Shown here: one piece after another, positions 5,126 through 39,927 of the stretch
How positions within the stretch are numbered: position 1 is the first letter of the stretch
Layout of the letters: each line of letters begins with the position of its first letter
Source: a virus
Taxonomy: Duplodnaviria > Heunggongvirae > Uroviricota > Caudoviricetes
Virus record (IMG/VR): IMGVR_UViG_2711768036_000007
Length of the DNA stretch: 39,927 bases
Direction: 5' to 3' (one strand)
Made by a program: the position numbers and the translations under genes
Notes under the pieces: model-generated
The model's input: only the letters and a program-made list of their open reading frames with translations
Databases searched by the model: none
Told to the model about the DNA's origin: nothing

Positions 5126-6005
5126 CCTCCAGCTTCGCTTTGCATTCTATGTAAATGGCTTGTACGTTCTGCTGCAATTTCATTCCAGATGTCAGGCGAT
5201 ATGCTTCTGCAAAATATCGCTTCAAATCATCCATGTTTTCTGCCTGAGCCATTTCATCGCAAAGAAGTTGTGCTTTATCCATTATTTCCTGCTGGCGTTT
5301 CCGTTCATCTTCGCGGATATCTTCCTCTGATTTGTGCGGCATAACTGGTTCCTGATGCATACCTTCATCTTCGTTAAGAAGGTGAATGGCATTATCCAGT
5401 CGCTGGGCTTTAGGCCAGTATTTGCTGGCGCGTTTAACTATTGTTTTACGCGCCATCTCTTCCCAGAATGTTTTCCACGGTCCATTCTTTGCCTTGCTCG
5501 TTGCTTCCACAGCTTTAATTTCTGCCAGACTCATTTCTTCAGTCAGGTAGTCACCATCTGCTGTTTTAACCGTGCAATAACCTCCAACAATAGAGCCTCG
5601 CTCACCAAATGCGTTGTATTTGTGGGTTGGTGCTGAATCAAGGCCATTTGATTCATAGGTGTCGTTTGAGTACACCAGTTTGCATTGCCCCCACTTAATT
5701 GATCCTGTCGATTGCGCAAGATGAAGTAATCCCATGTAACTGATATCAAGGCACACCATGCCGTCGCGAGGAACCAGATAAGCCAGTTTGCTGGCCGGGT
5801 TTAAGGTGATGCCGATCGCCGCAACATTGATGATGGCGTTCTGTGCGCTGGTTGGATTTGCCAGTGCTGTTTTAGCCAGGTAATCGTTTTTCTGGAAATA
5901 CTGAATTGCAAACTGGCTTTCCTTAGCCCATGTCACCGTCTGTTCAGTCAATGCTCCGCAGAATAATTGCTCTTGCTGTTTAACGAATTCAACGATATTG
6001 CTCAT
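5103..6005 (-). CDS. RecT-family single-strand annealing recombinase
   Basis: Motif KNGPWKTFWEEMARKTIVKRASKYWP matches RecT conserved NGPW..HWEEMAKKTA region. Confidence 0.8.
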   Translation of the reverse strand: MSNIVEFVKQQEQLFCGALTEQTVTWAKESQFAIQYFQKNDYLAKTALANPTSAQNAIINVAAIGITLNPASKLAYLVPRDGMVCLDISYMGLLHLAQSTGSIKWGQCKLVYSNDTYESNGLDSAPTHKYNAFGERGSIVGGYCTVKTADGDYLTEEMSLAEIKAVEATSKAKNGPWKTFWEEMARKTIVKRASKYWPKAQRLDNAIHLLNEDEGMHQEPVMPHKSEEDIREDERKRQQEIMDKAQLLCDEMAQAENMDDLKRYFAEAYRLTSGMKLQQNVQAIYIECKAKLEVASEQTV

Positions 6006-6313
6006 GCAGCTTCTCCATAAATATGTCTGCGTTTGAATATTGCGAAGGCATATTCAGCCTTAACTCTTTCGGTTATTGCATCCCAGAACCATTCAGCTGC
6101 TTTTTCCTGATAGTTACAGTCATCATCTTCCAGCCAGTCGATAGCGTCCTTAGTGTGTTCATCTGGTTTATATGAGCGAAGCATTTCGCTTATTGGGTCG
6201 CAACGTTTGCAGAGACGATCAACTTCACTGTTGATTCGTTCGTAATCTTCATCGGTAAAACTTGCGATGATTTGCGATATTTCACGCTTATCATTCAGAG
6301 TCAGAATCATCAT
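6002..6313 (-). CDS. Hypothetical protein upstream of recT, 103 aa
   Basis: ORF in track; position of kil/gam-type accessory genes. Confidence 0.45.
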   Translation of the reverse strand: MMILTLNDKREISQIIASFTDEDYERINSEVDRLCKRCDPISEMLRSYKPDEHTKDAIDWLEDDDCNYQEKAAEWFWDAITERVKAEYAFAIFKRRHIYGEAA

Positions 6314-6394
6314 CTTTCTCCTGTTCTTTGTGCTGATTGAGCATTTCTTTCATCTGACGAATGAATTCTTCGTCTGACCAGTTATCTGTAAAAC

Positions 6395-6565
6395 TCATGG
6401 ACGGCCTTGTTGTTTCAAAATATCCCAAAGCTTTTCGAGCAAACTTTTCATTCTTGGTTGTTTAAAGTCTGCTCCGGTTAAAATATTTTTTCGTGAATGC
6501 TGTACCGATAAAATCGGGTTGAAAGGGCGAACCGATGCCGCCCCTGCAATAGCGAACTGTTGCAT
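6395..6565 (-). CDS. cIII: cIII-like protein (FtsH inhibitor), 56 aa
   Basis: From internal Met: MQQFAIAGAASV...SLLEKLWDILKQQGRP resembles lambda CIII (MQYAIAG...SLLERITRKLRDGWKRLIDILNQPGVP); AGGAG RBS upstream. Confidence 0.6.
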   Translation of the reverse strand: MQQFAIAGAASVRPFNPILSVQHSRKNILTGADFKQPRMKSLLEKLWDILKQQGRP

Positions 6566-6631
6566 AGGATGCTCCTTCTGTTTGATTGCATAACGAAAAC
6601 GCCTCTCGTGAAGCGTTATTGGTATGCATAT

Positions 6632-6655
6632 AAAAAGGCCCTCACATTGGAGGGC
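6632..6655 (-). terminator. Rho-independent terminator in the leftward operon (tL-like)
   Basis: Minus-strand hairpin GCCCTC-6nt-GAGGGC followed by U-run. Confidence 0.45.
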
Positions 6656-6791
6656 AAAGAAGATTTCCAATAATCAGAACAAGTCGGCTCCTGTTTAGTT
6701 ACGAGCGACATTGCTCCGTGTATTCACTCGTTGGAATGAATACACAGTGCAGTGTTTATTCTGTTGTTTATGCCAAAAATAAAGGCCACCG

Positions 6792-7043
6792 TCAGGCAGC
6801 CTTGTTGTAAATGTTACAGGTATCAAGTAAGTAATTAGATGGAGCGCCATAAATTATGAATTCATCGTTTGTCGGGTCCATCTCCATCTCTTGGCCTATT
6901 GCCATTCTTGCGTCAGTGTCATCAGCGGCGAAGCATAAAACAGCCCACGCACCCATTGTTTTAAAAAGAACTGCAATTGGCTGTGGTTTTACTGAATTTG
7001 CGTTAGCGCGAAAATCATAAATCGCACTTTCATGAAATTCCAT
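6792..7043 (-). CDS. Hypothetical protein between N and cIII, 83 aa
   Basis: ORF in track. Confidence 0.45.
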   Translation of the reverse strand: MEFHESAIYDFRANANSVKPQPIAVLFKTMGAWAVLCFAADDTDARMAIGQEMEMDPTNDEFIIYGAPSNYLLDTCNIYNKAA

Positions 7044-7051
7044 ATCTCACC

Positions 7052-7357
7052 TCAATCGTAATAAGCTGGAATTGATTTTCCGCGTTGCTTCTGGCGGCCT
7101 GAGCATGTCACACCCATTTCACTGCGTGGCTTGCGGTAGTAAATACGATTCTGTTTACGATCGACTTCTTCTGCCTTCTTGCAGCGAAGGCTTCCGAGTG
7201 ATGCTGCTTTATCTGCCCTGACGCAACCAGAGAGCTTTAGCGCAATTTTTCGCGCCAGTCGCTGCTCTTGCATTGCCTGTTCACGTTGAGCCTGTCTGCG
7301 TGCTCTGCGGCGATTTCTGGCGTTATCGTCAGCCAGATATGTAATGACTACTGTCAT
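7052..7357 (-). CDS. N-like transcription antitermination protein
   Basis: From internal Met (GGAGG RBS): arginine-rich motif DNARNRRRARRQAQREQA near N-terminus; first large gene downstream of nutL. Confidence 0.65.
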   Translation of the reverse strand: MTVVITYLADDNARNRRRARRQAQREQAMQEQRLARKIALKLSGCVRADKAASLGSLRCKKAEEVDRKQNRIYYRKPRSEMGVTCSGRQKQRGKSIPAYYD

Positions 7358-7689
7358 GTTGACCTCCGGGAAGGTACACATCCTTGTGTGTCGATGATTA
7401 TTTGTTTTTGCGTTCCCACATCCAGTCATCTACTTCAGACCAGATGGTGAAACCGAAGCCGATGGCGAATGTGGTAACTAAACCACCGAGAATTGGGTTG
7501 GTAATGATGTCTAACATTTTCTGTTCCTCAGATGATTAGCTTTGGTGGTGTGGTCGGTGGGAGACCCATTTCGACCCGCTTCGTCCGACTTCAATTCGGC
7601 AATAGTCCCGCAGGCCTCGCCGCTTTACGTGCGACATATTCCCGTCCATGAACCCTTCACCACACCCCAAAGCCAACTACTCTTTGGTT

Positions 7690-7729
7690 CCCGCATTTCG
7701 GCGGGACAATCCCATCAATGTTAAAGAGC
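7690..7729 (-). promoter_or_regulatory. nutL (boxA GCTCTTTAA plus boxB hairpin CCCGCCGAAATGCGGG)
   Basis: Same boxA/boxB pair, same 15-nt spacing, as the rightward copy at 9359..9401. Confidence 0.6.
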
Positions 7730-7777
7730 CTGCCAATCTGTTCCGTTTGGCTTCCAGCGTCCTGCTGATGGCTAAAG

Positions 7778-7863
7778 AATACTGTAGGTATTTTATTGTG
7801 TAAATACCCAAGGTATTTATTTTTGATGAAATAATGATAAACAAATGAATACAAAGGATATTT
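7778..7863. promoter_or_regulatory. OL operator cluster / PL region (AATAC-N5-GTATT sites)
   Basis: Palindromic 15-mers at 7778..7792 and 7803..7817, degenerate third at about 7849..7863; same motif in OR. Confidence 0.55.
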
Positions 7864-7948
7864 ATTTTTTCGCTGTCTGCTTGTTCAGTGATTTTTATGC
7901 GGGATATGTGAAGTGGATCCCGATAGCTATTGCTGCCGGGATTATGGG

Positions 7949-8317
7949 TTAGTCAGCGAAGGTTAAGACGAGAATTACCTTAATGATGTCTGCTACAACA
8001 GACACGGCCATAGATAAACCAAAGACGATCCAAGCCACAGTGATGTCTTCACTACCATCGTATAGAGTTCCGTAATCACTGGTGTAAGGCGTAAATGTCG
8101 CGCCTTGATACAATAGGTATAAGCTTGATTCATAGAGGATAAATGCAGATATCCCTTGTATTGCTATGATCACAAGAATCATGAAACGAGCTGATCTATG
8201 CGCCCAAGCCTGGCTTATTTTTTCTGATAGAGATTTCGCAATAAAAGCATGCGCTAAGCCGTAAATTGTCGAGATTGCCAACATCCCAAAAAAGCTTGCT
8301 ATAGCGGTTCCAACCAT
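7949..8317 (-). CDS. Small polytopic membrane protein co-transcribed downstream of cI (rex/sieB position)
   Basis: 122 aa from ATG with AAGGGG RBS (track ORF starts at TTG overlapping cI stop); about 4 hydrophobic helices; rare codons visible. Confidence 0.6.
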   Translation of the reverse strand: MVGTAIASFFGMLAISTIYGLAHAFIAKSLSEKISQAWAHRSARFMILVIIAIQGISAFILYESSLYLLYQGATFTPYTSDYGTLYDGSEDITVAWIVFGLSMAVSVVADIIKVILVLTFAD

Positions 8318-8334
8318 AATCGCCCCTTGCGTGA

Positions 8335-9051
8335 TCAAACCAGCCTTAGTTTTGTCTCAATTGCAACGCCTATAATCTTGCAGTTTCCATTGATTGGCAC
8401 GAGAGGCCATGCAGGATTAAGTCCCTTGAGGTATTTATTTCCGCCGTCGATTATCAGCTTCTTGAATGTTGCTTCGTTAGAGTCAGAAAGTTTTGCTATG
8501 ACCAAGCTGCCGTTGATCGCCTCCCTTCCGGTATCGAAAAGAACGAATGTTCCCTCTGGAATGCTTAACCCAACCGGTGCCGTCATTGAATCACCTTCCA
8601 CTTTAAGCCAGAACGCATTACCTTGAATATGCGCGTCAGACTCAAGCCAAACATCTATGTCTTTAATGGTGTATGGTTCGCATGCTTCACACCACGAGCC
8701 AGCCTGGATACTGCTTAACACCGGATACCTCTTTCCTGCTCTGTATTCCCCTGCATACCTTACGTTGGCATCGCTCTTAAGGCTTTCTGCCTGTTCTGCA
8801 ACCTTGGCAGCAATTGACTGGCTAAAATCAGCAATTGAGACTTGCAACAGTCGTGCAAAACCAGATGCAACCTCAACGTTTAGCGCGTTTCTGCCATTAA
8901 GATAATGCCCTACCGCTCCTTGGGTGATACCCAGTTCATCAGCGATTGAGTATTGGGTTATCCCCAATTCTTTCTTTTTTGACTCATACAAAGCCTTAAG
9001 CCGCTTAGCGTCTTCGAGCTGTTCTGTCGTCAGTGATTTTTTATTTTCCAT
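8335..9051 (-). CDS. cI: cI-type prophage repressor (N-terminal HTH, C-terminal S24 LexA-like domain)
   Basis: 238 aa; HTH segment ITQYSIADELGITQGAVGHYLNG; C-terminal GDSM and K motifs of S24 peptidases; divergent from cro across operators. Confidence 0.85.
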   Translation of the reverse strand: MENKKSLTTEQLEDAKRLKALYESKKKELGITQYSIADELGITQGAVGHYLNGRNALNVEVASGFARLLQVSIADFSQSIAAKVAEQAESLKSDANVRYAGEYRAGKRYPVLSSIQAGSWCEACEPYTIKDIDVWLESDAHIQGNAFWLKVEGDSMTAPVGLSIPEGTFVLFDTGREAINGSLVIAKLSDSNEATFKKLIIDGGNKYLKGLNPAWPLVPINGNCKIIGVAIETKLRLV

Positions 9052-9086
9052 AGCTTAATTCTAATAGCTAAGGTACTTAAACTAAA

Positions 9087-9126
9087 AATACCCTGAGTAT
9101 TGATTGCTTTGAATACCTGTAGTATT
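9087..9126. promoter_or_regulatory. OR operator sites / PR-PRM region
   Basis: AATACCCTGAGTATT (9087..9101) and AATACCTGTAGTATT (9112..9126) between divergent cI and cro. Confidence 0.6.
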
Positions 9127-9157
9127 CTTTGTTCATGGTTAATAACGGAGAGTGCAT

Positions 9158-9352
9158 ATGATTCGAATGACACTTGCCGATTACGCCAAAATCCATGGAC
9201 AGGCTAAAGCAGCCAGTGACTTTGGTGTAATCCAGTGCGCTATCAGCAAGGCCATTCTGGCAGGCCGTAACATTATGGTTACGGTAAAGCCTGATGGCAG
9301 TGTGATTGGAGAGGAGGTTCGTCCTTTCCCAAGCAACAAGAAAAACAAATAG
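9158..9352 (+). CDS. cro: Cro repressor
   Basis: [33 protein letters not shown]... resembles lambda Cro; GGAG RBS. Confidence 0.8.
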
Positions 9353-9358
9353 TAACAC

Positions 9359-9401
9359 CGCTCTTTAACAGTCATGGTCCTCATTCCCGCCGAAATGCGG
9401 G
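9359..9401 (+). promoter_or_regulatory. nutR (boxA CGCTCTTTAACA plus boxB CCCGCCGAAATGCGGG)
   Basis: Between cro and cII; boxB identical to nutL copy. Confidence 0.65.
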
Positions 9402-9460
9402 AATACAACGCGCATAAGTTGATGCGCATAACTTCTTATTTGTTAAGGAAATACTTACAT

Positions 9461-9754
9461 ATGGTTCGTGCAAACAAACGCAACGAGGCTCTAAGAATCG
9501 AGAGTGCGTTGCTTAACAAAATCGCAATGCTTGGAACTGAGAAGACAGCGGAAGCTGTGGGAGTTGATAAGTCGCAGATCAGCAGGTGGAAGAGGGACTG
9601 GATTCCAAAGTTCTCAATGCTGCTTGCTGTTCTTGAATGGGGCGTCGTTGACGACGATATGGCTCGATTGGCACGACAAGTTGCTTCGATTCTCACCAAT
9701 AAAAAACGCCCGGCGGCAACCGAGCGTTCTGAACAAATCCAGATGAAATTCTGA
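9461..9754 (+). CDS. cII: CII transcriptional activator
   Basis: [51 protein letters not shown]... matches lambda CII as I recall it; track ORF carries a spurious N-terminal extension. Confidence 0.9.
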
Positions 9755-9933: not shown

Positions 9934-10786
9934 TCTTGCAACCGCAACACATTTAAGGCCTTCACAACGGCCTGTGGAGCGTTGTGTGGCAGAAGTTGAA
10001 GATGGTTATACCCGTCTTGCAAATGCCCTGTATGAAGAGCTTATCGGCGCTGATTTAACGAAAAATCAGAGTAAGGTTGCCCACGCCATATGCCGTAAAA
10101 CATACGGCTACGGTAAAAAGATGGATCGCATCTCTGATAGTCAGTTAGCTCAAATTACCAGGCTGCCAAGACAGAAGGTAAACAAGGCCAAGAATGAGCT
10201 TATCGCGATGAAGGTTATCCTTCGCGAAGGCCAGCAAATCGGGCCTAACAAGAACATCGAAGAATGGCAAATCGAAGGGTGTCACTACTCTGGTGATAAT
10301 GTCACTGCATTGGTGACAAAAAGTGTCACCAAAACGGTGACAGCGCTGTCACCAAAACAGGGACACACAAAAGAAACTATTACAAAAGAAAAAAGAAATA
10401 ATAAAAACACTATGTCCGAAAGTGTTCGGACGGAGTGTGAAAAATCACCTGACCGTCACGAAGAAACCGACAAGGCATTCGAGGAAATATTCTGGTGTGC
10501 AGGCATGCGGAAAGCCGGGAAGAAAAACGCAGCTTCGGCATTCAGAACACAGTTCAGGGAATGGCGTAAAACTACCAGGGGTACGGCAAGCGAGTTTGCC
10601 ACGATGCTGGCAGAAGACATCGCATGCAGGAATGGAAAGCAGTTCGGATTCGACAGGTTGTTACCATCGAGCTACCTGAACGGTCAACGCTGGAACGACG
10701 AGAAGCCAGAAACTATTCAACCACAATCCAAACCATCATCCGCAATCACCGTATCGAAAACTGGCTACGTGTTTTTCGACAGGTGA
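9926..10786 (+). CDS. Lambda O-like replication initiator
   Basis: N-terminal region ([49 protein letters not shown]) resembles lambda O; iterons lie inside the gene. Confidence 0.8.
10301..10412 (+). promoter_or_regulatory. Putative replication origin (iterons plus AT-rich tract) inside O-like gene
   Basis: Repeats TGTCACCAAAACGGTGACA / TGTCACCAAAACAGGGACA and a related copy, followed by an A-rich tract. Confidence 0.6.
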
Positions 10787-10893
10787 ACCATGAAATCAAA
10801 AATCAAATCGCTACTGGTCGCTGGTTATAACCACGGCTGGTTAAGTATTTCGTTTGTCGATTTCTGGTTTAAAAATCTCAATCTGAGGGAATC

Positions 10894-12774
10894 ATGACGC
10901 CAAGTGAACTTAGCGACCTGCTTTGGGCGCAGGTTGACAGGGTGGCTCCGCACCTGTTGCCAAACGGCAAGAAAGAGGGGCATGAGTGGGTTGCCGGTAA
11001 CGTCAACGGTGACAAGGGAAACAGCCTTAAGGTCAACCTTAGCGGCAAGAAAAAATGGGCTGATTTCGCTGAGGGAGACGGCGGTGACATGCTTGATTTG
11101 TGGATGGCATGTCGTGGAATTAACCTGCATCAGGCTATGCAGGAAGCGAAAGCCTTTCTCGGAATCAAGGATGACGATCACCATTTCGATGCCAAACGTG
11201 AGAAGAAATTCTCCAGACCTGATCGCAAGAAAATCGCCCGCTACGTTACCAGGACAGAATCCCATCTTGAGTACCTGCAATCGCGTGGCATATCGCCAGA
11301 AGTCGTAAAGCGCTACGAGGTTGTCAGCGGCAAGGTGTGGAATGGAGAACGAGAACTGGATGCTCTGGTGATTCCGTACAAACGCGATGGTGAGTTGTTG
11401 CAGGTCAAGCGAATCAGCACTGAGCGCCCGGACGGGAAGAAAGTCATTATGGCAGAAGGTGATTGCGAACCTTGTCTGTTCGGATGGCAGGCTCTGGACG
11501 CTGGCGTGAGGGCGGTTGTACTTTGCGAAGGCGAAATTGATTGTATGAGCTATGCGCAATACGGCATCTCTGCGTTATCCGTGCCGTTTGGTGGCGGGAA
11601 AGGCGCTAAGCAACAGTGGATTGAGTTTGAGTATCACAACCTCGACAGGTTTGAGGAAATATTCATCTCGATGGACGTTGATGATGTTGGTCGTGAAGCC
11701 GCAAGGGAAATCGCAAGCCGACTCGGTGAACATCGTTGCCGTCTTGTTACTCTGCCGTACAAAGACATCAACGAATGCCTGATGAACGGTGTTACCGAGG
11801 ATGAAATCTGGCAGTACATCGGCACGGCATCCTACTTCGATCCTGAAGAACTCTACAGCGCGCGAGAGTTTTACCAGGACACTATCAACGCTTTCTACGG
11901 CAAGCAGCAGTATCTGTTTAATCCACCGTGGGAATCTCTGGCAGATAAATTCCAGTTCCGTGAGGCCGAGTTGACGCTGGTCAATGGTGTGAACGGTCAC
12001 GGAAAAACGGAGGTTGTCGGGCATATGGCACTTGAGGCAATGCGTCAGGGTGTGAAGACGTGCATCGCGTCACTTGAGCTGAAGCCAGGCATTCTCCTTA
12101 AACGACTTACCCGTCAGGCGACGTGCTGCAAGATGCCACCAGTGCTGGAAATTGACTCTGCATTTAAATTTTATGACGAAAGACTTTGGGTGTTTGGCCT
12201 GACCGGAACGGCGAAAGCCGACAGGCTGATCGAAATATTCGACTACGCTCGCCGCCGATACGGCATCCAGTTATTCATCATCGACAGCCTGATGAAATGT
12301 GGCATAGGCGACGATGACTATAACGGGCAGAAGGCGTTTGTTGACTCGATTTGCGATTTCAAAAACAAAACAAACTCCCACGTCATTCTCGTTACTCACT
12401 CGCGAAAAGGTGACAGCGAAGAAAAACCAACCGGGAAAATGGACGTAAAAGGCTCTGGAGCGATAACAGACCTGACAGACAACCTTTTCATCATCTGGCG
12501 TAACAAGGCTCGTGAGAGAGCGTTACAGAGAGTTCAGAGTGGTGAAAAGATGTCAGAGAAGGACGAACAGCTACTGGCATCTCCGGCATCTGTTTTGATG
12601 CTTGAAAAACAACGTAACGGCGAAGGTTGGGAAGGTGGTGTCCCGTTGTTCCTTGACGAGCAATCGCACCAGTTCCTGCAACTTGAATCAGGATCGCCAT
12701 ATAGCTACATCGCCAATATGCCGAAATCGGAATATGACGAGGCGTGGCGACAGGAAAACGTGACGGAGTATTAA
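10894..12774 (+). CDS. Primase-helicase (TOPRIM-like region plus DnaB-like/SF4 helicase domain)
   Basis: 626 aa; Walker A NGVNGHGKT, Walker B-like IIDSL; occupies the position of lambda P. Confidence 0.7.
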   Translation: MTPSELSDLLWAQVDRVAPHLLPNGKKEGHEWVAGNVNGDKGNSLKVNLSGKKKWADFAEGDGGDMLDLWMACRGINLHQAMQEAKAFLGIKDDDHHFDAKREKKFSRPDRKKIARYVTRTESHLEYLQSRGISPEVVKRYEVVSGKVWNGERELDALVIPYKRDGELLQVKRISTERPDGKKVIMAEGDCEPCLFGWQALDAGVRAVVLCEGEIDCMSYAQYGISALSVPFGGGKGAKQQWIEFEYHNLDRFEEIFISMDVDDVGREAAREIASRLGEHRCRLVTLPYKDINECLMNGVTEDEIWQYIGTASYFDPEELYSAREFYQDTINAFYGKQQYLFNPPWESLADKFQFREAELTLVNGVNGHGKTEVVGHMALEAMRQGVKTCIASLELKPGILLKRLTRQATCCKMPPVLEIDSAFKFYDERLWVFGLTGTAKADRLIEIFDYARRRYGIQLFIIDSLMKCGIGDDDYNGQKAFVDSICDFKNKTNSHVILVTHSRKGDSEEKPTGKMDVKGSGAITDLTDNLFIIWRNKARERALQRVQSGEKMSEKDEQLLASPASVLMLEKQRNGEGWEGGVPLFLDEQSHQFLQLESGSPYSYIANMPKSEYDEAWRQENVTEY

Positions 12775-26066: not shown

Positions 26067-26297
26067 ATGACACACATGATCTTTCGTCATGGCGACATGA
26101 AGAAGTGGAAAGGCGTTGGCTACGACTTTGAAATTGTGAAAGCCGAAGAGATTCAGGAATATCTGGATGCTGGTTGGTTTGCACATCCCGATGACCTTCT
26201 GAAGGACGTTGCGGAGCCAGAGCCAGAAGAAAAGCAGCGTAAAAAGCCTGGTCGAAAACCTAAGGCGGCAGCAGATGAACCTGACAACGAAGGGTGA
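26067..26297 (+). CDS. Hypothetical small protein between coat and gp4, 76 aa
   Basis: From internal Met with GGAG RBS; lysine/proline-rich C-terminus; overlaps gp4 start. Confidence 0.45.
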
Positions 26298-26775
26298 TTT
26301 AGTTCTTGCGGCATTACGTAAGCTCGGTGTGGCATCAAATGCCACGTTAACCGATGTCGAACCGCAGTCTATGGAAGATGGCGTCAACGACCTTGAAATG
26401 ATGATGGCTGAATGGCTTGGCGGTGATGCGTCACCAGGTATCAACGTTGGCTACATTTTCGCTGATGTAGATGTCGCTCCAGATCCTGGCGATGAACACG
26501 GTTTATCAAATAACGCTATCAATGCCGTCATTTTCAACCTTGCCTGCCGCATTGCTCCGGATTATGCGCTGGAAGCGCCTGCAAAACTTATAACCACTGC
26601 CAGATACGGGAAAGAGCGACTCGTCAAACTGTCTGCAATGGACAGAGCAAAAGCCGCTAAATGTAAGTCCGGTTATCCAAACCGTATGCCTGTTGGTAGT
26701 GGTAACCAGTTGGCGAAGTGGAACGGTTGGAATTACTTCCACCGGAAGGAACCTTGCGATAACGGGAGCGAATAA
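26275..26775 (+). CDS. Tail accessory / head completion protein (P22 gp4-like)
   Basis: From internal Met: 166 aa, [29 protein letters not shown] resembles P22 gp4. Confidence 0.8.
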
Positions 26776-28194
26776 ATGCCGATTCAGCAACTTCCGCTTA
26801 TGAAAGGTGTCGGCAAAGATTTTCGAAACGCCGACTATATCGACTATCTGCCAGTGAATATGCTGGCTACACCCAAAGAAATCCTGAACAGCAGCGGATA
26901 TCTTCGCTCATTCCCGGGCATTGCCAAACGTTCTGATGTGAACGGTGTATCTCGCGGCGTCGAGTACAACATGGCGCAGGGTGCTGTTTATCGCGTGTGT
27001 GGTGGCAAGCTGTACAAAGGAGAAAGTGAAGTCGGTGATGTTGCCGGAAGTGGTCGCGTATCAATGGCGCATGGTCGAACATCACAGGCGGTAGGCGTTA
27101 ACGGGCAACTGGTCGAATACCGCTATGATGGCACGGTTAAAACCGTCTCAAACTGGCCTGCAGACAGCGGGTTTACGCAGTATGAGTTAGGTTCGGTTCG
27201 TGATATTACGCGCTTACGTGGGCGTTATGCGTGGTCAAAAGACGGTACTGATTCATGGTTCATCACTGACCTTGAAGACGAATCACATCCTGACCGATAC
27301 AGCGCACAATATCGTGCAGAATCGCAGCCTGACGGCATCATCGGAATCGGAACATGGCGAGACTTCATCGTCTGCTTTGGTTCATCGACTATTGAATATT
27401 TCTCCCTGACTGGCGCAACCACCGTTGGTGCTGCTTTGTATGTCGCACAGCCATCATTGATGGTGCAAAAAGGCATCGCCGGGACTTACTGCAAAACGCC
27501 ATTCGCTGATTCTTATGCGTTCATCAGCAATCCGGCAACAGGTGCGCCGTCTGTATATATCATCGGCTCCGGTCAGGTATCACCAATCGCCAGCGCGAGC
27601 ATTGAGAAAATACTACGCTCCTACACTGCTGATGAACTGGCTGATGGCGTGATGGAATCGTTGCGGTTTGATGCTCATGAGTTGCTGATTATTCACCTGC
27701 CGCGCCATGTTCTTGTTTACGACGCATCTTCAAGCGCCAATGGTCCGCAATGGTGTGTGCTGAAAACAGGCTTGTATGACGATGTGTACCGCGCTATCGA
27801 CTTCATTTACGAAGGCAATCAGATAACGTGCGGCGATAAGCTGGAATCTGTTACCGGGAAATTGCAGTTCGATATCAGCAGCCAGTACGACAAGCAACAG
27901 GAACATCTGCTGTTTACTCCACTCTTCAAAGCAGATAACGCCAGAGTTTTCGACCTTGAGGTTGAATCGTCAACTGGCGTTGCGCAGTACGCTGACCGCC
28001 TGTTCCTCTCTGCAACCACTGACGGCATCAATTACGGTCGTGAGCAGATGATTGAGCAGAATGAACCGTTCGTTTACGACAAGCGCGTTTTGTGGAAGCG
28101 AGTAGGGCGCATAAGGAAAAATGTTGGCTTCAAATTGCGCGTTATCACGAAGTCACCTGTAACTCTGTCTGGTGCTCAGATAAGGATTGAGTAA
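26776..28194 (+). CDS. Tail accessory protein (P22 gp10-like)
   Basis: 472 aa, same length and position as P22 gp10. Confidence 0.8.
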
Positions 28195-31533: not shown

Positions 31534-34161
31534 ATGGCTAATTACCGTGATTTGTTAGAGCAGGCTGGCGCACGTTACGGTGTGCCAGAAGGGTTGATGA
31601 CTGCACTGGGTGCCAAGGAGTCTTCTTACAACCCTGCCGCAGTAAGCTCCGCCGGGGCTGTAGGATTGACTCAGGTCATGCCTGGGACATGGCGTGATAT
31701 GGGTTATACCGATGAGCAAATGCAAAACCCCGAATATCAGGCTGACGCTGGCGCGCGCTATCTGGCAAAGATGTACCAGCAGTTTGGTAACTGGCGTGAC
31801 GCTCTTCAGGCTTATCACGACGGTCCCGGCAACGTTATGAAGGCAAAGCGTGGTGAATATACGCCAGGACCTGAAGGCCGCGGTTACGTTGATGATCGCT
31901 TTGCTCAATGGGCGGGTGACCCGGTGACAGACTCAACAGTCGAACAGCGCGCCACCTCTGCAAAGGTACATCCTCAGCAAGACCCTAACAACCCGTTTGC
32001 ACAACTGGAAGTACAGTCATCCGAACAAGTATCAGCATCAGGTGTGCAGTCAGACCCAAATAATCCATTTGCTCAGATTGAGCAGCAGGCAGCCAGTCAG
32101 CAGCCACCTCAACCCGTAAGTTCTGTCGCACCGAAACCTGTTCAGCAACAAACAGTTAATCAGGCCAATAATGAACCAGCACGTGAAGAACCATCATTGA
32201 TGCAACAAGCTGGCGATTGGCTCACAGGTGGTCAAAGTGCAGGGCAAATTGCAGAGCAGGCTGGTCGTGGTCTGGTAAACATACCATTCGACGTATTACA
32301 GGGCGGCGCAAGCCTGATTAATGCAATCAGTCAGGGGCTTGGTGGCCCCAAGGTTTTGGATGATGTTTATCGCCCTGTCGATCGACCGACAGACCCTTAC
32401 GCACAAGCCGGTGAAACAATTGGTGGGTATCTCCTGCCAATTGGCACAGCGGCAAAAGCTGCTGGAGCGACAGCAAAGCTCGCAGGAGACATCGGTTCCG
32501 CAGGAAACATGATTGCCGGTTCTCTTGCTGATGCTGCAAATCAGGAGGGTGATTTTGCACAAAATGCTGCCATTAACGGTGGTATCAATATTGGTGCTCA
32601 AGGCGTTATTTCAGGTGTCGGGCGCGTTATTGCGCCAAGGGTTTCACAGGCTCTTGGTGGTGCAGCACTGAATTCTGCTAATGATGTTTCCAGGATGGCA
32701 AAGTCAGGTGCTGGGCGTCAGTCAATTGCCAGTCAGGCCGCTAATGTGTCCGAAGATGTAGCAAAAGCGGCTGAGTCTGCTGGAATTGATATAAACGCAT
32801 TAACACCAGGAATGCGATCTGGAAGTCGTGGAATTGCACAAGCCGAAGGCGCATTGGCATCAACACCAGGGATTGTTCAGGATGCCCATCAGGCAGCATT
32901 TAACGAAATATCATCAAAGTTAAGTCGAAACCTTGATGAATTTGGGGCCGCATCTGGAACGGCATCAGAAAAAAGTGCGGCTATAAAACAAAGGATTCTT
33001 CAAAATCTTGATCAGATGAAGGATGCTGAGCGCGCGGCATGGGATGACGTGCGGTCAACAATGCCAAATCAAAAAGCAAGAATGCTAAATGGTAATGCCG
33101 TTATTCAGGCAGAGCGATCTGCTGGCATACCGCTTACTCCTGAAATGAAACAGTTTGTTCAGGCAAACAATCAAGGTGGAGTAACATTTGATGGCATGAA
33201 AGCATGGAGAGCGAAATTTGCTGATGCGGAGCAAAAATATAAGCGTAGCGGAGAGGTAAATGCGGCAAGGAGAGCAGGGGAAATACGTCGGGCAATTACT
33301 GATGATATGCGCACAATGGCGGAAAACGGCGGATTTTTTGATGACTGGCAAAAAGCTAATGATCTGTCTAAAGCGAGGCTATCCGCACAAGAGAGTGCAG
33401 AGTCTGTTTTTGGGCGTGATTTGGCAACAGATGCACTGATTACGAATGGAGTAAAATCTCTTCAATCATCGTCAGCTAAAGGTCTTAATGGTCCTGCTGG
33501 ATTCCATTCTATGATCCGCGCGCTGCCAGAATCAGAGCGCGTTCCTGCTATATCATCAATGTTGCAGGATGCTATCTCGCATGGTGTACGTGGTGGCAAA
33601 TCTGATGCAGCAGGAATTAACCATATCGCAGGGATACTTACCCCACAAAATGTAAAAGCCATTAGCAGATATTCCTCAGAACTTGGAAGAATTGCTGATG
33701 CATATGGCACTCTTGCAAGAGCAGCAGTGAAACCTCAGCAGTATATTGAAAGAACAGGGAGAACTGCCAATGTACTACGCGATCTGGATGCTGGTTTATC
33801 CAACGTCACATCAACAGTGTTAAATGCAATTGCCAACTCAACATCAGGTGCCATTGTTGGTGGCGCTGGAGGGGGTATTGCAGGCGCTGCCGCGGGTGCT
33901 TTAGTTGGCGCCGGGTTAAAAGGCGCTGTATCTAAAATTGCCACCACACGTAGTGGTCGATATGCGATAGAGAAAGCTGTTCAGGAAGCCACCAAAGCAG
34001 TAAGAGCAGGCGGAAGCAAAGAAGCATTAGCGGCGGCGGAACGCAGATTTATAGCAAATAAAGCCGCCGTAAAAGCAATACGCGATGCTATTGGTAGCGA
34101 TGAATTCAATCGCTTGTCGAGAGCTGGTATTGTCGCCTCGTTAAGCGGTATGAATGAATAG
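31534..34161 (+). CDS. Ejection protein (gp16 position) with N-terminal lytic transglycosylase (SLT) domain
   Basis: 875 aa; N-terminal GAKESSYNP...[10 protein letters not shown]...YHDGPG resembles SLT domain. Confidence 0.65.
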
Positions 34162-34163
34162 CT

Positions 34164-34649
34164 TTATCTAATGTTGCTGCTACTGTTGCATGTGACGGTG
34201 TTTCCAAATCCTGAATTGCAGTTTGTATATGTGTCAACGCGCGTTGGGTAAGGTTGAGTTATAACAGGCTGGCGCGCTTTTTGCTCGATCGCTTGCATTG
34301 TGTTTACAGCCTGATAATTCAACAAAGCCTGCTGGAATGCTTGGCTTTGTGCTATTTGTTGGGCTTGTTCTTGGCTTTGTAATTGAACATAAAGATTCTG
34401 AAGCTCAAGTCTTGCCTGTGCGTCACTTATCTTGCCTTCATCGACACCTTGCCCGAGCATCTTTGCAGCAAGGACATACAGCTTAGGTGTTGGTGCTGAT
34501 GCCATGCGTGAGTCGTTCTTCACACTGGCATCAAGGCAATTAGCCATATCGCTAAGCTTTTGATAGCGTTGTTCGCAACTTGCTTGATAGTCACTTACTT
34601 TTGCGCATCCAACCAGCAGAAGCGGGATAATTAACAGTGATTTTTTCAT
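34164..34649 (-). CDS. Lipoprotein, Gln-rich, at the sieA position downstream of mnt
   Basis: From internal Met with AAGGAG RBS: signal MKKSLLIIPLLLVGC (lipobox LVGC); 161 aa; converges on end of ejection gene. Confidence 0.65.
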   Translation of the reverse strand: MKKSLLIIPLLLVGCAKVSDYQASCEQRYQKLSDMANCLDASVKNDSRMASAPTPKLYVLAAKMLGQGVDEGKISDAQARLELQNLYVQLQSQEQAQQIAQSQAFQQALLNYQAVNTMQAIEQKARQPVITQPYPTRVDTYTNCNSGFGNTVTCNSSSNIR

Positions 34650-34719
34650 ATGGTTAACTCTCCTTAGTTTTTCACAGGATATCATGAAGGCAATGCCATT
34701 TTAGCCGGAAACTAGATTT

Positions 34720-35121: not shown

Positions 35122-37359
35122 ATGACAGACATTACAGCCAATGTGATCGTATCAATGCCTTCGCAACTCTTCACTATGGCGCGTTCTTTTAAAGCCGTAG
35201 CCAATGGCAAAATTTATATCGGTAAAATTGACACTGACCCGGTAAATCCTGAAAACCAGATTCAGGTTTATGTAGAGAATGAAGACGGTTCTCACGTTCC
35301 TGTTTCTCAACCAATCATCATTAACGCTGCTGGTTACCCTGTATATAACGGACAGATTGCCAAATTCGTTACCGTGCAAGGCCATTCTATGGCTGTTTAT
35401 GATGCGTATGGTGCACAGCAGTTCTATTTTTCGAATGTGCTGAAGTATGACCCTGACCAACTCAGGCAAGATCTTGCATCTCAAGGAGGTGTTAATCTGG
35501 TAAACGGAGCTATCTCACAGGAAGATCTTGTTTTGCAGTCGATCACAAAAATTCCAAGTTATGATAATTCTAACGTAGTCCAGGCGTGGCGCGATAGTGT
35601 TGCGACCTACGGGTATGTTTACTTCTCTAATCATTCAAAAAATCAGATGGTGTACACCGTACCGTCTACAGCTGCTAACGCTTCTTTCCTTGCGAACAGT
35701 AAAGTAATCATTGATAAAAATGTCACCCTGAGATTCGACAGTGATCTGTACTCACTGTTTAAATCGTTGCAGTACGAGGGGGAGGGTACGTTTGAATTTA
35801 CGCACCTGAACTTTAAAGCAACCGGTGGAGAAGTGGATTATCTGGCTAAGCAGGCCATCCTCAACCGAAACCCTATTCGCATGAAGCGAGTGGAATGGTC
35901 AGATTGTAAAGTTTATTCCATAAATGGTGACACGTTCTTCTATGAAGGTGAAGTCACCATATCCTCAGATAGCGCAGCTATCTTCCCCTTAACTACTGAC
36001 CGTACAACAGGCCTGTTCGCACCAATAGATATTGGAGAGCATATTTCTGCACATATTCGTATGGAATCTCAGGCCGCCTCAGAAGTTGGGATTGTTCTGC
36101 GATGCTCTGGTGGTTGGATGATGTTCTATGGGGCACCAGGTGCTACACAGTGGTCTTATAGACAGAAACCAATTGGTGGTCCAGTAGCAGAAGGAACTCC
36201 ATTCCCGCTGCCAGGAGGTTTACTGTCGTACGCCCCGGGCAAAGCAACCGTTGGCGTATCACTGCAAGGTAAAAACTGGGCGCAGATAACGATGAATGGC
36301 GTTGGGATACGCTTGCCCTTTGATACTGCTGATGTAGGGGATGTATACGAAGTTGGGTTTGTTGCACTGACCCCGGCATCTGGAGGTTCTGCGCGTGTAA
36401 CTGGATTATGCAGCTACACCTCTGATAATGGTGTGCACGGTAAGCCTCCACTTAATATCCTTATCCACGGTGATAGTACAGCTGAGGATTTCATTTCCGC
36501 GTTCAGCTCGTACATTCCGCAATTAATGGATGGAGCGAACGGCCACCGTTCACATAGCATTGTAAACAAGGCAGTTGCCGGACAGACAATGAGGCAACAG
36601 TTAGATCTCCTGAAGGCTCAGGGGCCGGGTGATGCTTACATCGTTATTATGGTTGCCGGAACTAACGAAGGGCAGGCAAACCAAAACGGCGATTATATGG
36701 CGGCACTGATAGATGAGTTTGTCTTATATTGCAATGGCCTTGGTCGTATCCCTGTTTGGGTTGAGCCGTGGATGTGGTATAGCCAGTCATTTATTGGCGG
36801 TGCTGGTCAACCATCAGCAAATTACGATGGTGTTGCGGAGTTACGCGAGGCTGGTAAACGCCAGATGATGAAATATGGCAATAACGTCATTTGTGTAACA
36901 ACAACTCACCAGCTCCCGGCCCCATATCCAGAGTATTTCAACACGCAATACGACCCACTTCTGCGTGATGACATTCACCAAAGCCAGTTAGGGTATCGTC
37001 TGTATGCGGAAATTATCTGCTCTGCCATTATCGACTGGTGGTCGCGTGTTGATTACACGCCAAGAGCAGCTGTTCAATGGTGGGCTGGAACAAACGTAAC
37101 AGTACAGGAACCGTCAAGTTTAACTGCCAATTCAATTAATATTAAACTGGCAGCCACTTCATTTGCGAATGGCAATACTGTTCTAACGCTTCCGAGGTGG
37201 TGCAGACCAAAAGTAACCAAAAATGTCCCTGTACCGTTCACTGCTGATGGCGTTTCATTTGGCATGGCAATGGCCACCATTAATGCTTCAACAGGACAAA
37301 TATCGATTGAAGGGTCCACCACTACATCTCCAACGTTCTACATAGATGCGACATGGTAG
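35122..37359 (+). CDS. Tailspike: P22-type N-terminal head-binding domain fused to a domain with SGNH-esterase signature
   Basis: N-terminus [43 protein letters not shown] resembles P22 gp9; downstream blocks IHGDS, VAGQT, GTNE, DDIHQS fit SGNH blocks I, II, III, V. Confidence 0.8.
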
Positions 37360-37365
37360 TAAAAA

Positions 37366-37388
37366 CATGGAGGCAATACGCCTCCATG
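37366..37388. terminator. Perfect 8-bp hairpin between tailspike and int (U-run only for leftward transcripts)
   Basis: CATGGAGG-7nt-CCTCCATG; A-run upstream on plus strand. Confidence 0.4.
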
Positions 37389-37567
37389 CTAATAACTCAA
37401 ATGCTCTTAAAATACTCTTAAGGAGATGATCAGCGCTTTTATTAACATCAACCATCTATGTGCGTTATAGGTTAATTATCTCCATGTGATGGCAGACAAA
37501 ACTGAGACACACAAAGCTTTGCACTGGATTGCAAGGCTTTGTGCTCTTAGATAGTAGTTAAGGTGGA

Positions 37568-38761
37568 TCACTCCACCTTCCCATCAAGCCATTCCGCCCA
37601 CCACTGCATCATTTCTCTGCGCTTATCTAGATACTGAGCATGGTTGTAAATCCCGCGCACAGATCCGCCGTTGGCATGTGCAAGTTGCACTTCAATAGCG
37701 TCAGCAGGCCATTCGTGCTCGTTCATAATCGTGCTGAATTCATGCCTGAATCCGTGACCGCTTTCCAGACCCTCATAGCCGATTTGTTTAATCACAAGTA
37801 GCACCGCGTTCTCGCAGATTGGCTTCTTCTTATCGTTGCGTCCGGCAAAAACAAACTCTGATACTGGTTTGGTGATTGAGCTTAGCGTAGTGAGAAGTTC
37901 AACCACCTGGTCTGACATAGGAACCACATGAATTTTGCGTCCCTTCATCACACTGGCGTCGATAGTGATAATCCTGTTTTCAAAATCGACGTTCTTCCAT
38001 TGCATGGAACGAAGCTCTTTCGTTCTTAGGGCTGTGTAGCGTAAAACTTTGGTCGCAATGAGCGATACGATGCTTCCTGAAAATGTTGCCAGTGCTTTGT
38101 TGAATGCCGGGATCTGGTCTGCAGGAAGAAACGGGAAGTTCTTCTTGCGGTATCCCTTCATGGCGTCAGCAAGGTCAGGTGCCGGGTTATATTTAGCCCT
38201 TCCGGTGACAATAGCGTAACGGAAAACCTCGCCGCATCTTCTGCGTGCTTTGTTGGCTCGCTCCATTGCACCGCGATCTTCAAATCTGCGGATTACTTCC
38301 AGCAGTTGCATCGGCTCAATATCCTGAATCTCAAGACCGCCGATGATGGGTAAAATGTCGTCATCAAACATTTTTGCAAGTTCAGTCGCATACCCTACTG
38401 ACCAGACTTGCTTCTTGTGTTCGTACCATTCCTTGTAAATTGCACTAAAGGAATTGTTGTTAGACGAAGCCTTTTTCGCTTTTACCGGATCGATGCCAAC
38501 CGAGATGTCTTTCCTCGCAGTCCATGCTTTATCCCTTGCCTCCTGCAAAGTCATAAGCGGATATTTTCCTACGGTCAGGATTTTCTCCTTACCGTCAATC
38601 TTGTAGCGAAGCTGCCATACCTTTTTCCCTGACACAGGGACATAAAGGTACAGGCCATTACCATCGAGTAGGCGGTATGGTTTTTCTTTCGGCTTTGCTG
38701 CTTCAATCTGCTTAACGGTGAGCATGGGTAAAAATCCGGTGGGTAAAATTATTTTATCCAC
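37568..38761 (-). CDS. int: Tyrosine integrase (P4-type)
   Basis: 397 aa; C-terminal catalytic region with HGFRHEF and Y motif; next to att core and tRNA remnant. Confidence 0.9.
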   Translation of the reverse strand: MDKIILPTGFLPMLTVKQIEAAKPKEKPYRLLDGNGLYLYVPVSGKKVWQLRYKIDGKEKILTVGKYPLMTLQEARDKAWTARKDISVGIDPVKAKKASSNNNSFSAIYKEWYEHKKQVWSVGYATELAKMFDDDILPIIGGLEIQDIEPMQLLEVIRRFEDRGAMERANKARRRCGEVFRYAIVTGRAKYNPAPDLADAMKGYRKKNFPFLPADQIPAFNKALATFSGSIVSLIATKVLRYTALRTKELRSMQWKNVDFENRIITIDASVMKGRKIHVVPMSDQVVELLTTLSSITKPVSEFVFAGRNDKKKPICENAVLLVIKQIGYEGLESGHGFRHEFSTIMNEHEWPADAIEVQLAHANGGSVRGIYNHAQYLDKRREMMQWWAEWLDGKVE

Positions 38762-38886: not shown

Positions 38887-38901
38887 TGGTGTCCCCTGCA
38901 G
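38887..38901. repeat. Right attachment-site core (direct repeat)
   Basis: Exact 15-nt match to 1690..1704. Confidence 0.7.
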
Positions 38902-38919
38902 CCATTTAACTAAGAGGAC
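38887..38919 (-). tRNA. argW: argW tRNA-Arg(CCU) remnant: 5-prime 18 nt fused directly to 3-prime 15 nt (central ~42 nt absent)
   Basis: Minus strand reads GTCCTCTTAGTTAAATGG + CTGCAGGGGACACCA; both ends match argW as I recall it, but 33 nt cannot form a tRNA. Confidence 0.4.
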
Positions 38920-38994: not shown

Positions 38995-39927
38995 TTATGC
39001 TGGGTTTTTATCATTTTTCTTAATGTTTTCCGCACGTTCTGCTTTTTGGCGTGCTTCTGCTTTACGCTTGTTGCTCATGTCGTTACGAATCTGTGCATGA
39101 CTCATTAACGCGAAGATAAAGGTGCCGCCGCAGATGTTCCCCGCTAAAGTAGGTAGTGCGAAGGGCCAGATGAAATCGCTCCAGTGCAGCGTGCCGTTAA
39201 ACACCAGATAGAGGATTTCAACAGAACCGACAACGATGTGGGTGGTGTCACCCAGTGCAATAAGCCAGGTCATCAATATAATCACCACAATCTTTGCCGC
39301 ACCCGCAGCAGGAAACATCCAAACCATAGTGGCGATCAGCCAGCCGGAAATGATCGCGTTGGCAAACATCTCGCTGGGGGTGTTCTTCATCACATCCATG
39401 CCGATTTTGACAAATGCATCGCGAGTTTCTTCATTGAAGATAGGCATATATTCAAATGCCCATGCAGCAATACCTGTCCCGAGAATATTACCCAGCAGCA
39501 CGACGCCCCATAATCGCATAAGTAAGCCGACGTTGCTCATTGTCGGTTTTTGCATGACGGGTAGTACCGCAGTCACGGTGTTTTCGGTAAATAATTGCTG
39601 GCGGGCCATAATGACGATAATAAAACCAAAGGTATAACCGAGATTCTCCAGTAAGAAGCTGCCTGGCACTCCTTCCAGTTCGACATGAAATATCCCTTTT
39701 GCCAGTAGCGAAGCGCCCATCGACAGACCCGCCGCAATGGCTGACCACAGTAGCGCCATTGCGTCGCGTTCCAGCTCTTTTTCACCATCCTGGCGGATAT
39801 GCTCATGAATTGCCATCGCCCGGGAGGGGAGTCGGTCTTCATCTATTTCTATTTTTTTGCCGCGCTCTTTTTCTTCGCTCTCAACTTCAATTTCGTCGCT
39901 GTGTTGATCAATTTTGTCGTTGTCCAT
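38995..39927 (-). CDS. yfdC: Formate/nitrite transporter family inner-membrane protein, host gene
   Basis: 310 aa; matches my recollection of E. coli YfdC, which neighbours argW. Confidence 0.8.
   Translation of the reverse strand: MDNDKIDQHSDEIEVESEEKERGKKIEIDEDRLPSRAMAIHEHIRQDGEKELERDAMALLWSAIAAGLSMGASLLAKGIFHVELEGVPGSFLLENLGYTFGFIIVIMARQQLFTENTVTAVLPVMQKPTMSNVGLLMRLWGVVLLGNILGTGIAAWAFEYMPIFNEETRDAFVKIGMDVMKNTPSEMFANAIISGWLIATMVWMFPAAGAAKIVVIILMTWLIALGDTTHIVVGSVEILYLVFNGTLHWSDFIWPFALPTLAGNICGGTFIFALMSHAQIRNDMSNKRKAEARQKAERAENIKKNDKNPA

Follow-up and report, generated by a model that had tools for sequence, protein, structure and literature searches.

A P22-like prophage tailspike with a predicted SGNH esterase domain and its association with Escherichia coli serogroup O88

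Results

The stretch of DNA analysed here as a whole (39,927 nucleotides, IMG/VR record IMGVR_UViG_2711768036_000007; hereafter the window) is a complete P22/Sf6-like prophage at the argW site beside yfdC. Its tailspike gene, the subject of this report, occupies positions 35122-37359 on the plus strand, exactly the open reading frame picked out by an earlier sequence-only reading, and encodes 745 amino acids followed by a stop codon. The protein matches phrog_17606 over its full length, and RefSeq copies that are 96-99% identical to it are labelled 'phage tailspike protein'. From the evidence given below we consider it probable that this spike recognises and O-deacetylates the O88 O-antigen of E. 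coli and leaves the polysaccharide backbone uncut.

The first 113 residues (35122-35460, plus strand) make up the head-binding domain for attachment to the tail hub, which ends with the YDPDQ hinge (residues 109-113). Pfam Head_binding (PF09008) matches residues 1-113 with E=1.3e-66 and a PDB sequence search matches residues 1-121 to the N-termini of Sf6 gp14 (gp14N, 7sg7) and P22 gp9, in accordance with the earlier assignment of about the first 110 residues to the head-binding domain of the P22 tailspike. Identity to the CUS-3, HK620 and Sf6 spikes amounts to 88-96% and is confined to residues 1 to about 125, and the PDB sequence search with the whole protein gave no match outside residues 1-121. 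For the remainder we used residues 121-745 as the query of a homologue search, which returned 86 proteins; 36 of these, with identity down to 22%, were aligned for conservation, and an AlphaFold2 model of the spike was built on that alignment. The mean predicted local distance difference test score (pLDDT) of the model is 82 and exceeds 90 through most of residues 250-745, while the low confidence of the head-binding part is to be expected from the few alignment rows that include it.

Four further domains follow on the plus strand. Residues 137-252 (35530-35877) form a short alpha/beta domain that resembles a right-handed beta-helix at its capped beginning; it is a stub and no full depolymerase domain. 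Residues 253-436 (35878-36429) are an all-beta, lectin-like jelly-roll sandwich (pLDDT 89-97) that probably binds carbohydrate. The Foldseek matches to this domain alone are lectins of the galectin type, Hc domains of botulinum toxins and, from CE2 esterases, the jelly-roll portion. The SGNH/GDSL esterase domain occupies residues 444-641 (36451-37044) and a C-terminal beta-sandwich residues 655-745 (37084-37356). The latter is all-beta with a pLDDT of about 95, carries an LPR..P motif in which L690, P691, R692 and P696 are conserved in the homologue alignment, and may serve in trimerisation or as an additional glycan-binding site.

Within the SGNH domain the motifs IHGDSTAED (residues 448-456), VAGQT (485-489), GTNE (513-516) and DDIHQS (616-621) occur in this order. 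An ordered minimal SGNH pattern appeared in 3 of 20,000 shuffles of the spike protein, and G450-D451-S452, N482, G487, G513-T514-N515, D616 and H619 are invariant across the 36 aligned homologues; these residues belong to blocks I, II, III and V of the SGNH scheme. A chance origin of the motif set was also considered, and is ruled out by the shuffles, the invariance in the family and the fold. The predicted nucleophile is Ser452 of the block I GDS (codon 36475-36477), Gly487 of block II (36580-36582) and Asn515 of the block III GTNE (36664-36666) are the predicted oxyanion-hole residues, and the block V DxxH, Asp616 to His619 (36967-36978, all codons on the plus strand), would supply the acid and the base of the triad.

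The Pfam Lipase_GDSL_2 profile is matched over its full length by residues 450-627, with a sub-threshold score of 20.6 bits. Scanned singly, 23 of the 36 homologues match PF13472 at E 0.001 or better (best 1e-13), so the weak score of the spike reflects divergence and not absence of the domain. A profile of the family's SGNH domain reached E. coli thioesterase I/TAP (1IVN) with E=3e-6, which the PDB search with the whole protein did not, and aligned blocks I to III of the two: GDS with GDS, NkAvaGqT with NASISGDT and aGtNe with GGND. Ser452, Gly487 and Asn515 thereby fall on the GDS serine, the block II glycine and the GGND asparagine of thioesterase I, which are its Ser10, Gly44 and Asn73. 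In the model the domain has the three-layer alpha/beta/alpha, flavodoxin-like SGNH fold. Its fold matches include 1yzf (match value 19.2), the carbohydrate esterase CE3 (2vpt, 17.9), a sialic acid esterase (7pzg, 17.4), the peptidoglycan O-acetylesterase Ape1 (16.8) and two phage proteins, G7C gp63.1 (4qnl, 14.8) and the SFP21A fibre Gp09 (9lna, 14.5). Over residues from about 253 to 641 the Foldseek matches are two-domain acetyl esterases in which a jelly roll precedes the SGNH domain, among them SsfX3, YxiM, a polyvinyl-alcohol esterase and CE2 enzymes such as 2waa and 7toh.

It is known that some SGNH proteins (OatA, PatB, AlgX) transfer acyl groups and that others hydrolyse lipids, so the domain might be an acyltransferase or a lipase and not a glycan O-acetylesterase. 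Outside the cell, however, no acyl donor is available to a virion protein, deacetylases account for all of the best-supported precedents among phages, and the adjoining lectin-like domain together with the serogroup restriction described below indicates a polysaccharide substrate. We regard this explanation as extremely unlikely.

P22-like tailspikes typically carry a central parallel beta-helix glycosidase domain, which is lacking here, and Pfam scans of the spike and its homologues were negative for glycosidase and lyase families. That residues 137-252 might conceal a glycosidase was considered and judged unlikely, as this segment has solely weak matches to the starts of beta-helices. These results bear out the sequence-only reading, which had listed the four SGNH blocks in the order found, proposed that they replace a recognisable glycosidase domain and suggested deacetylation of a surface polysaccharide rather than its cleavage; the last is now supported in silico. 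Structure prediction could have placed the motifs outside an SGNH fold; the fold matches and the thioesterase I alignment speak against that. The one correction is to the range of about 400-700 that had been proposed for structure prediction, the SGNH domain proper extending over residues of about 444-641.

Another possibility is that the spike both deacetylates and cleaves the O-antigen, through a cryptic site in the beta-helix stub, the jelly roll or a trimer interface. There is a precedent in epsilon15 gp20, which joins an SGNH 'petal' to an endorhamnosidase (bioRxiv 10.64898/2026.07.31.742079). The stub does resemble the beginning of a depolymerase beta-helix, the polar residues D270, E306, R327, K349 and N392 of the jelly roll are conserved, and one Foldseek match is a GH16 agarase. 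Such a dual activity appears improbable to us.

The receptor-binding module that follows the head-binding domain is represented by phrog_17606 and by its relative phrog_13362. Both families bear the label 'unknown function', for which an annotation as SGNH esterase receptor-binding proteins can now be substituted. Across the homologues it is joined to at least five adaptors: the P22 head-binding domain, a TSP1/gp66-type N-terminus, a T7 fibre N-terminus, a tail-collar fibre N-terminus and Calx-beta-containing N-termini; in the present spike the YDPDQ hinge is the junction. An exhaustive search gave 245 clusters (at 50% identity) with E no higher than 1e-3 and 43 with E no higher than 1e-30, most members being 650-1,000 residues long with the match in their C-terminal part. 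Some E. coli copies are already named 'SGNH/GDSL hydrolase family protein' in RefSeq. In the deposited phage collection distant copies were found solely in Aeromonas phage phiA047 and two Enterobacter phages, all three annotated as hypothetical.

We searched 5,426 complete E. coli genomes with blastn and found the module in 13, at nucleotide identities from 99.8% down to 71.3%. The O-antigen cluster of one host, PEC301, is annotated with O88 family wzx/wzy, and the O88-specific core of this cluster is present at 99% identity or more in 25 of the 5,426 genomes. All 13 module carriers possess the O88 core, and the module is present in none of the 5,401 other genomes (hypergeometric P = 9e-33 for the overlap; 2e-22 with nine acquisitions taken as independent). 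The module is missing from the remaining 12 of the 25 O88 genomes, as one would expect of a mobile element, and this adds nothing to the interpretation. The acquisitions look independent because they lie at different sites and in prophages of different types: in P22-like prophages at argW (PEC301), in a P22-like remnant beside ybhB and bioA (GPEC1240), in another prophage, that of strain 602687, where a lysis cassette of holin and GH19 genes comes immediately downstream of the module gene, and in a lambda-like siphovirus prophage with the module gene after TipJ (XJ55).

This distribution bears on whether O88 is merely a correlate of an active esterase whose true substrate is some other acetylated surface glycan, such as capsule, colanic acid, enterobacterial common antigen or an NGR-like glycan. 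SGNH receptor-binding proteins of Klebsiella prophages do target capsules (PMC13123978), and the fold matches listed above take in esterases of many different glycans. Yet the module tracks the O88 cluster exactly, and does so across adaptors and integration sites, while conserved glycans such as enterobacterial common antigen and colanic acid would not produce a serogroup restriction. We therefore hold another substrate to be unlikely.

The O88 cluster opens with two hexapeptide-family acetyltransferase genes, for WP_000806394.1 and WP_000273136.1, and also holds rmlBAC, an additional NAD-dependent epimerase/reductase gene and manBC, a gene set that fits an O-acetylated antigen with mannose and 6-deoxytalose. 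In PMC3104164 O88 is cited as having a 6-deoxy-L-talose-containing lipopolysaccharide (LPS). In the PEC301 cluster (locus L003) an ISEc1-family transposase gene (8538-9674) lies between galF and the first acetyltransferase gene and an ISApl1 transposase gene (26164-27138) between ugd and wzzB; in this lysogen the insertions might alter the expression of the O-antigen or the length of its chains.

Two further lysogens deserve mention. In XJ55 (locus L005) the SGNH tail protein gene (5368-7656, the copy with 71% nucleotide identity) stands beside genes for a small SGNH/GDSL protein and an AT3 'acyltransferase family protein' (7687-8370 and 10141-11205), a pair that looks like O-antigen acetylation, or lysogenic conversion, genes next to a predicted deacetylating fibre; the prophage of the window has no such pair. 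In NADC1036 a module copy with 96.6% nucleotide identity is found both in the chromosome (NZ_CP076264.1, 2791571-2793223) and in a separate record of 38,709 bp (NZ_CP076267.1), which suggests an excised or episomal copy of the prophage and, if so, a ready source of live phage.

The genes identified in the window are those for terminase, portal, scaffold, coat, a gp10-like protein, a tail needle with knob, three ejection proteins and the integrase (37568-38761, minus strand; phrog_1 integrase, E=9.8e-82). The spike gene lies downstream of the ejection protein genes of this P22-like virion set, with an Arc/Mnt-type repressor gene directly upstream of it, and is the last phage gene ahead of int and the attachment site, the gene order being identical in E. 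coli PEC301. In P22 and Sf6 an O-antigen conversion gene is placed between spike and int; as the gap measures just 208 nt here, no such gene is present at this position. Directly 3' of the spike stop codon there is a perfect 9-bp inverted repeat, CATGGAGGC-AATAC-GCCTCCATG (37360-37390), that has no T-run, is not called by the terminator scan and may act as a hairpin that stabilises the transcript or else belong to the attachment-site region. Scans for promoters and terminators around the spike gene gave nothing above the shuffled expectation. At the prophage junction between the integrase gene and the host gene yfdC, which forms the end of the window (38995-39927), the tRNA-Arg gene argW (38887-38919) is missing 42 internal nt in comparison with intact argW of PEC301, and for this reason ARAGORN finds no tRNA anywhere in the window; the loss is either a real inactivating deletion or an artefact of assembly or editing. 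Upstream, an 875-residue DNA-transfer (gp16-like ejection) protein (31534-34161, plus strand) has at its N-terminus a region of about 120 residues that resembles lytic transglycosylases, recognised by phrog matches to transglycosylase and endolysin families, and is thus a putative fusion of an ejection protein with a peptidoglycan-cleaving domain. Between the ejection genes and the Mnt-like repressor gene a reading frame for 173 amino acids (34164-34685, minus strand) with a lipoprotein-type signal, MKKSLLIIPLLLVGC, had no Pfam match and may encode a moron or a superinfection-exclusion lipoprotein.

Discussion

We propose that the head-binding domain anchors the spike to the tail hub and that the module composed of beta-helix stub, lectin-like jelly roll, SGNH esterase and C-terminal beta-sandwich, probably as a trimer, binds the O88 O-antigen and hydrolyses its O-acetyl esters. 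Catalysis would employ a predicted triad of Ser452, His619 and Asp616, and Gly487 and Asn515 would form the oxyanion hole. Our best guess at the target is an acetylated 6-deoxy-L-talose or mannose residue, and the polysaccharide chain would stay uncleaved. By analogy with G7C gp63.1, the coupling of binding to deacetylation might let the virion descend through the O-antigen layer until the tail needle meets the outer membrane; the 'processive motor' idea in PMC10743462 is itself a hypothesis. We infer deacetylation without depolymerisation because the module is restricted to O88 and the spike has no full depolymerase domain.

Several points weigh against this interpretation. An association drawn from lysogens tells which hosts were infected and not which molecule was bound; O-acetylation of the O88 antigen is predicted from two acetyltransferase genes; and the spike on its own stays under the Pfam gathering threshold for Lipase_GDSL_2 (20.6 against 32.9 bits). 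We nevertheless consider each of the four other explanations, three of which were discussed above, less likely.

The fourth concerns the role of the SGNH domain, which could be just a binding module, or a receptor-destroying enzyme that acts at release, stops re-adsorption to debris or lysogens and is dispensable for entry. HEF of influenza C is a receptor-destroying enzyme acting at release, and because lysogens retain the O88 antigen such destruction is conceivable here. On the other hand, all catalytic and oxyanion residues are strictly invariant, contrary to a role in binding only, and the spike is the sole receptor-binding protein visible in this P22-like genome. Moreover G7C, the one genetically tested system, needs its esterase activity for infection, according to PMC10743462. 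This explanation is accordingly very unlikely in our opinion, and recognition of the O88 antigen with deacetylation during entry is the interpretation we favour.

A broader proposal is that a P22-type virion crosses long-chain O-antigen by deacetylation alone, acting on the 6-deoxytalose or mannose acetyls of O88, and that the O88 cassette has been swapped among podovirus-type (P22-like head-binding and T7-like), lambda-like siphovirus-type and tail-collar (P2-like) adaptors. We hold this to be slightly less probable than its opposite. P22 serves as the reference for tailspike-driven entry and for LPS-triggered DNA ejection in vitro; if crossing by deacetylation alone were true, the 'pulling motor' and 'cutting a path' models could therefore be tested directly against each other. 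How deacetylation promotes entry could conveniently be examined in a P22-type virion that has an esterase spike, a clearly predicted serogroup and, in its host, candidate acetyltransferase genes. Esterase-only spikes challenge the textbook view, derived from P22, that a podovirus has to cleave the O-antigen on its way to the membrane. Tailspike specificity sets the host range of a phage. Phage typing can make direct use of the O88 link, and so can the engineering of binders specific for O88. That SGNH esterase receptor-binding proteins are swapped as modules between phages is already established, and no new principle is involved; the spike adds an assignment to serogroup O88 that is useful and testable. 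Our literature searches returned no prior description of a P22-like SGNH tailspike or of a link between O88 and a tailspike.

Several known systems can be compared with this spike. CE2 enzymes such as CjCE2 (PDB 2WAA) share the order of N-terminal jelly roll and C-terminal SGNH domain (Foldseek E about 6e-9), but over the two domains identity to 2waa is 9-13% and the root-mean-square deviation about 19 Å, so that the relative orientation of the domains differs. CE2 and TAP enzymes are soluble bacterial enzymes and not virion proteins, and their sequence identity to the spike is 11-17%. Among phage proteins, G7C gp63.1 (PDB 4QNL) is, according to PMC10743462, which cites Prokhorov et al. 2017, an O-antigen deacetylase that leaves the backbone intact and whose activity is essential for infection. 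Its likeness to the present spike is at the level of the fold only, and their receptor-binding parts share no sequence similarity that could be detected: G7C was absent from the tblastn matches of that part in the phage collection, and the family profile matches 4qnl solely through the unrelated TSP1/gp66-type adaptor of other family members. The G7C virion is N4-like, with branched spikes and another adaptor, whereas the spike described here has a P22-like head-binding domain, the order beta-helix stub, jelly roll, SGNH and beta-sandwich, and the inferred serogroup O88. Another podovirus spike, gp55 of Pectobacterium phage PP99, was shown by nuclear magnetic resonance to deacetylate 6-deoxy-L-talose side chains on a mannose-containing O-polysaccharide (PMC6989608). 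The sugar set implied by the O88 gene cluster, with 6-deoxytalose, mannose and acetyl groups, is similar, although PP99 gp55 is related to G7C gp63.1 and not to the present family.

Prophages of Klebsiella, in which SGNH receptor-binding proteins are a prevalent class with two confirmed esterases (PMC13123978), are alike in being temperate phages whose protein has an SGNH domain, no beta-helix and a serotype-associated distribution; they differ in being associated with the capsule (K-locus) and in having gp11/gp12-type adaptors. The gp20 tailspike of Salmonella phage epsilon15 also deacetylates O-antigen through its SGNH 'petal' (bioRxiv 10.64898/2026.07.31.742079), but there the esterase is an accessory on a beta-helix endorhamnosidase, while here there is no full depolymerase domain. 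Closest in virion type are the spikes of P22, Sf6, HK620 and CUS-3, which share the same head-binding domain (88-96% identity to the E. coli/Shigella members), the YDPDQ module junction and the same place of the gene, after the ejection proteins and the Arc/Mnt immunity region and before int. Their long parallel beta-helix endoglycosidase or endosialidase is replaced in the present spike by a mere stub and a predicted esterase.
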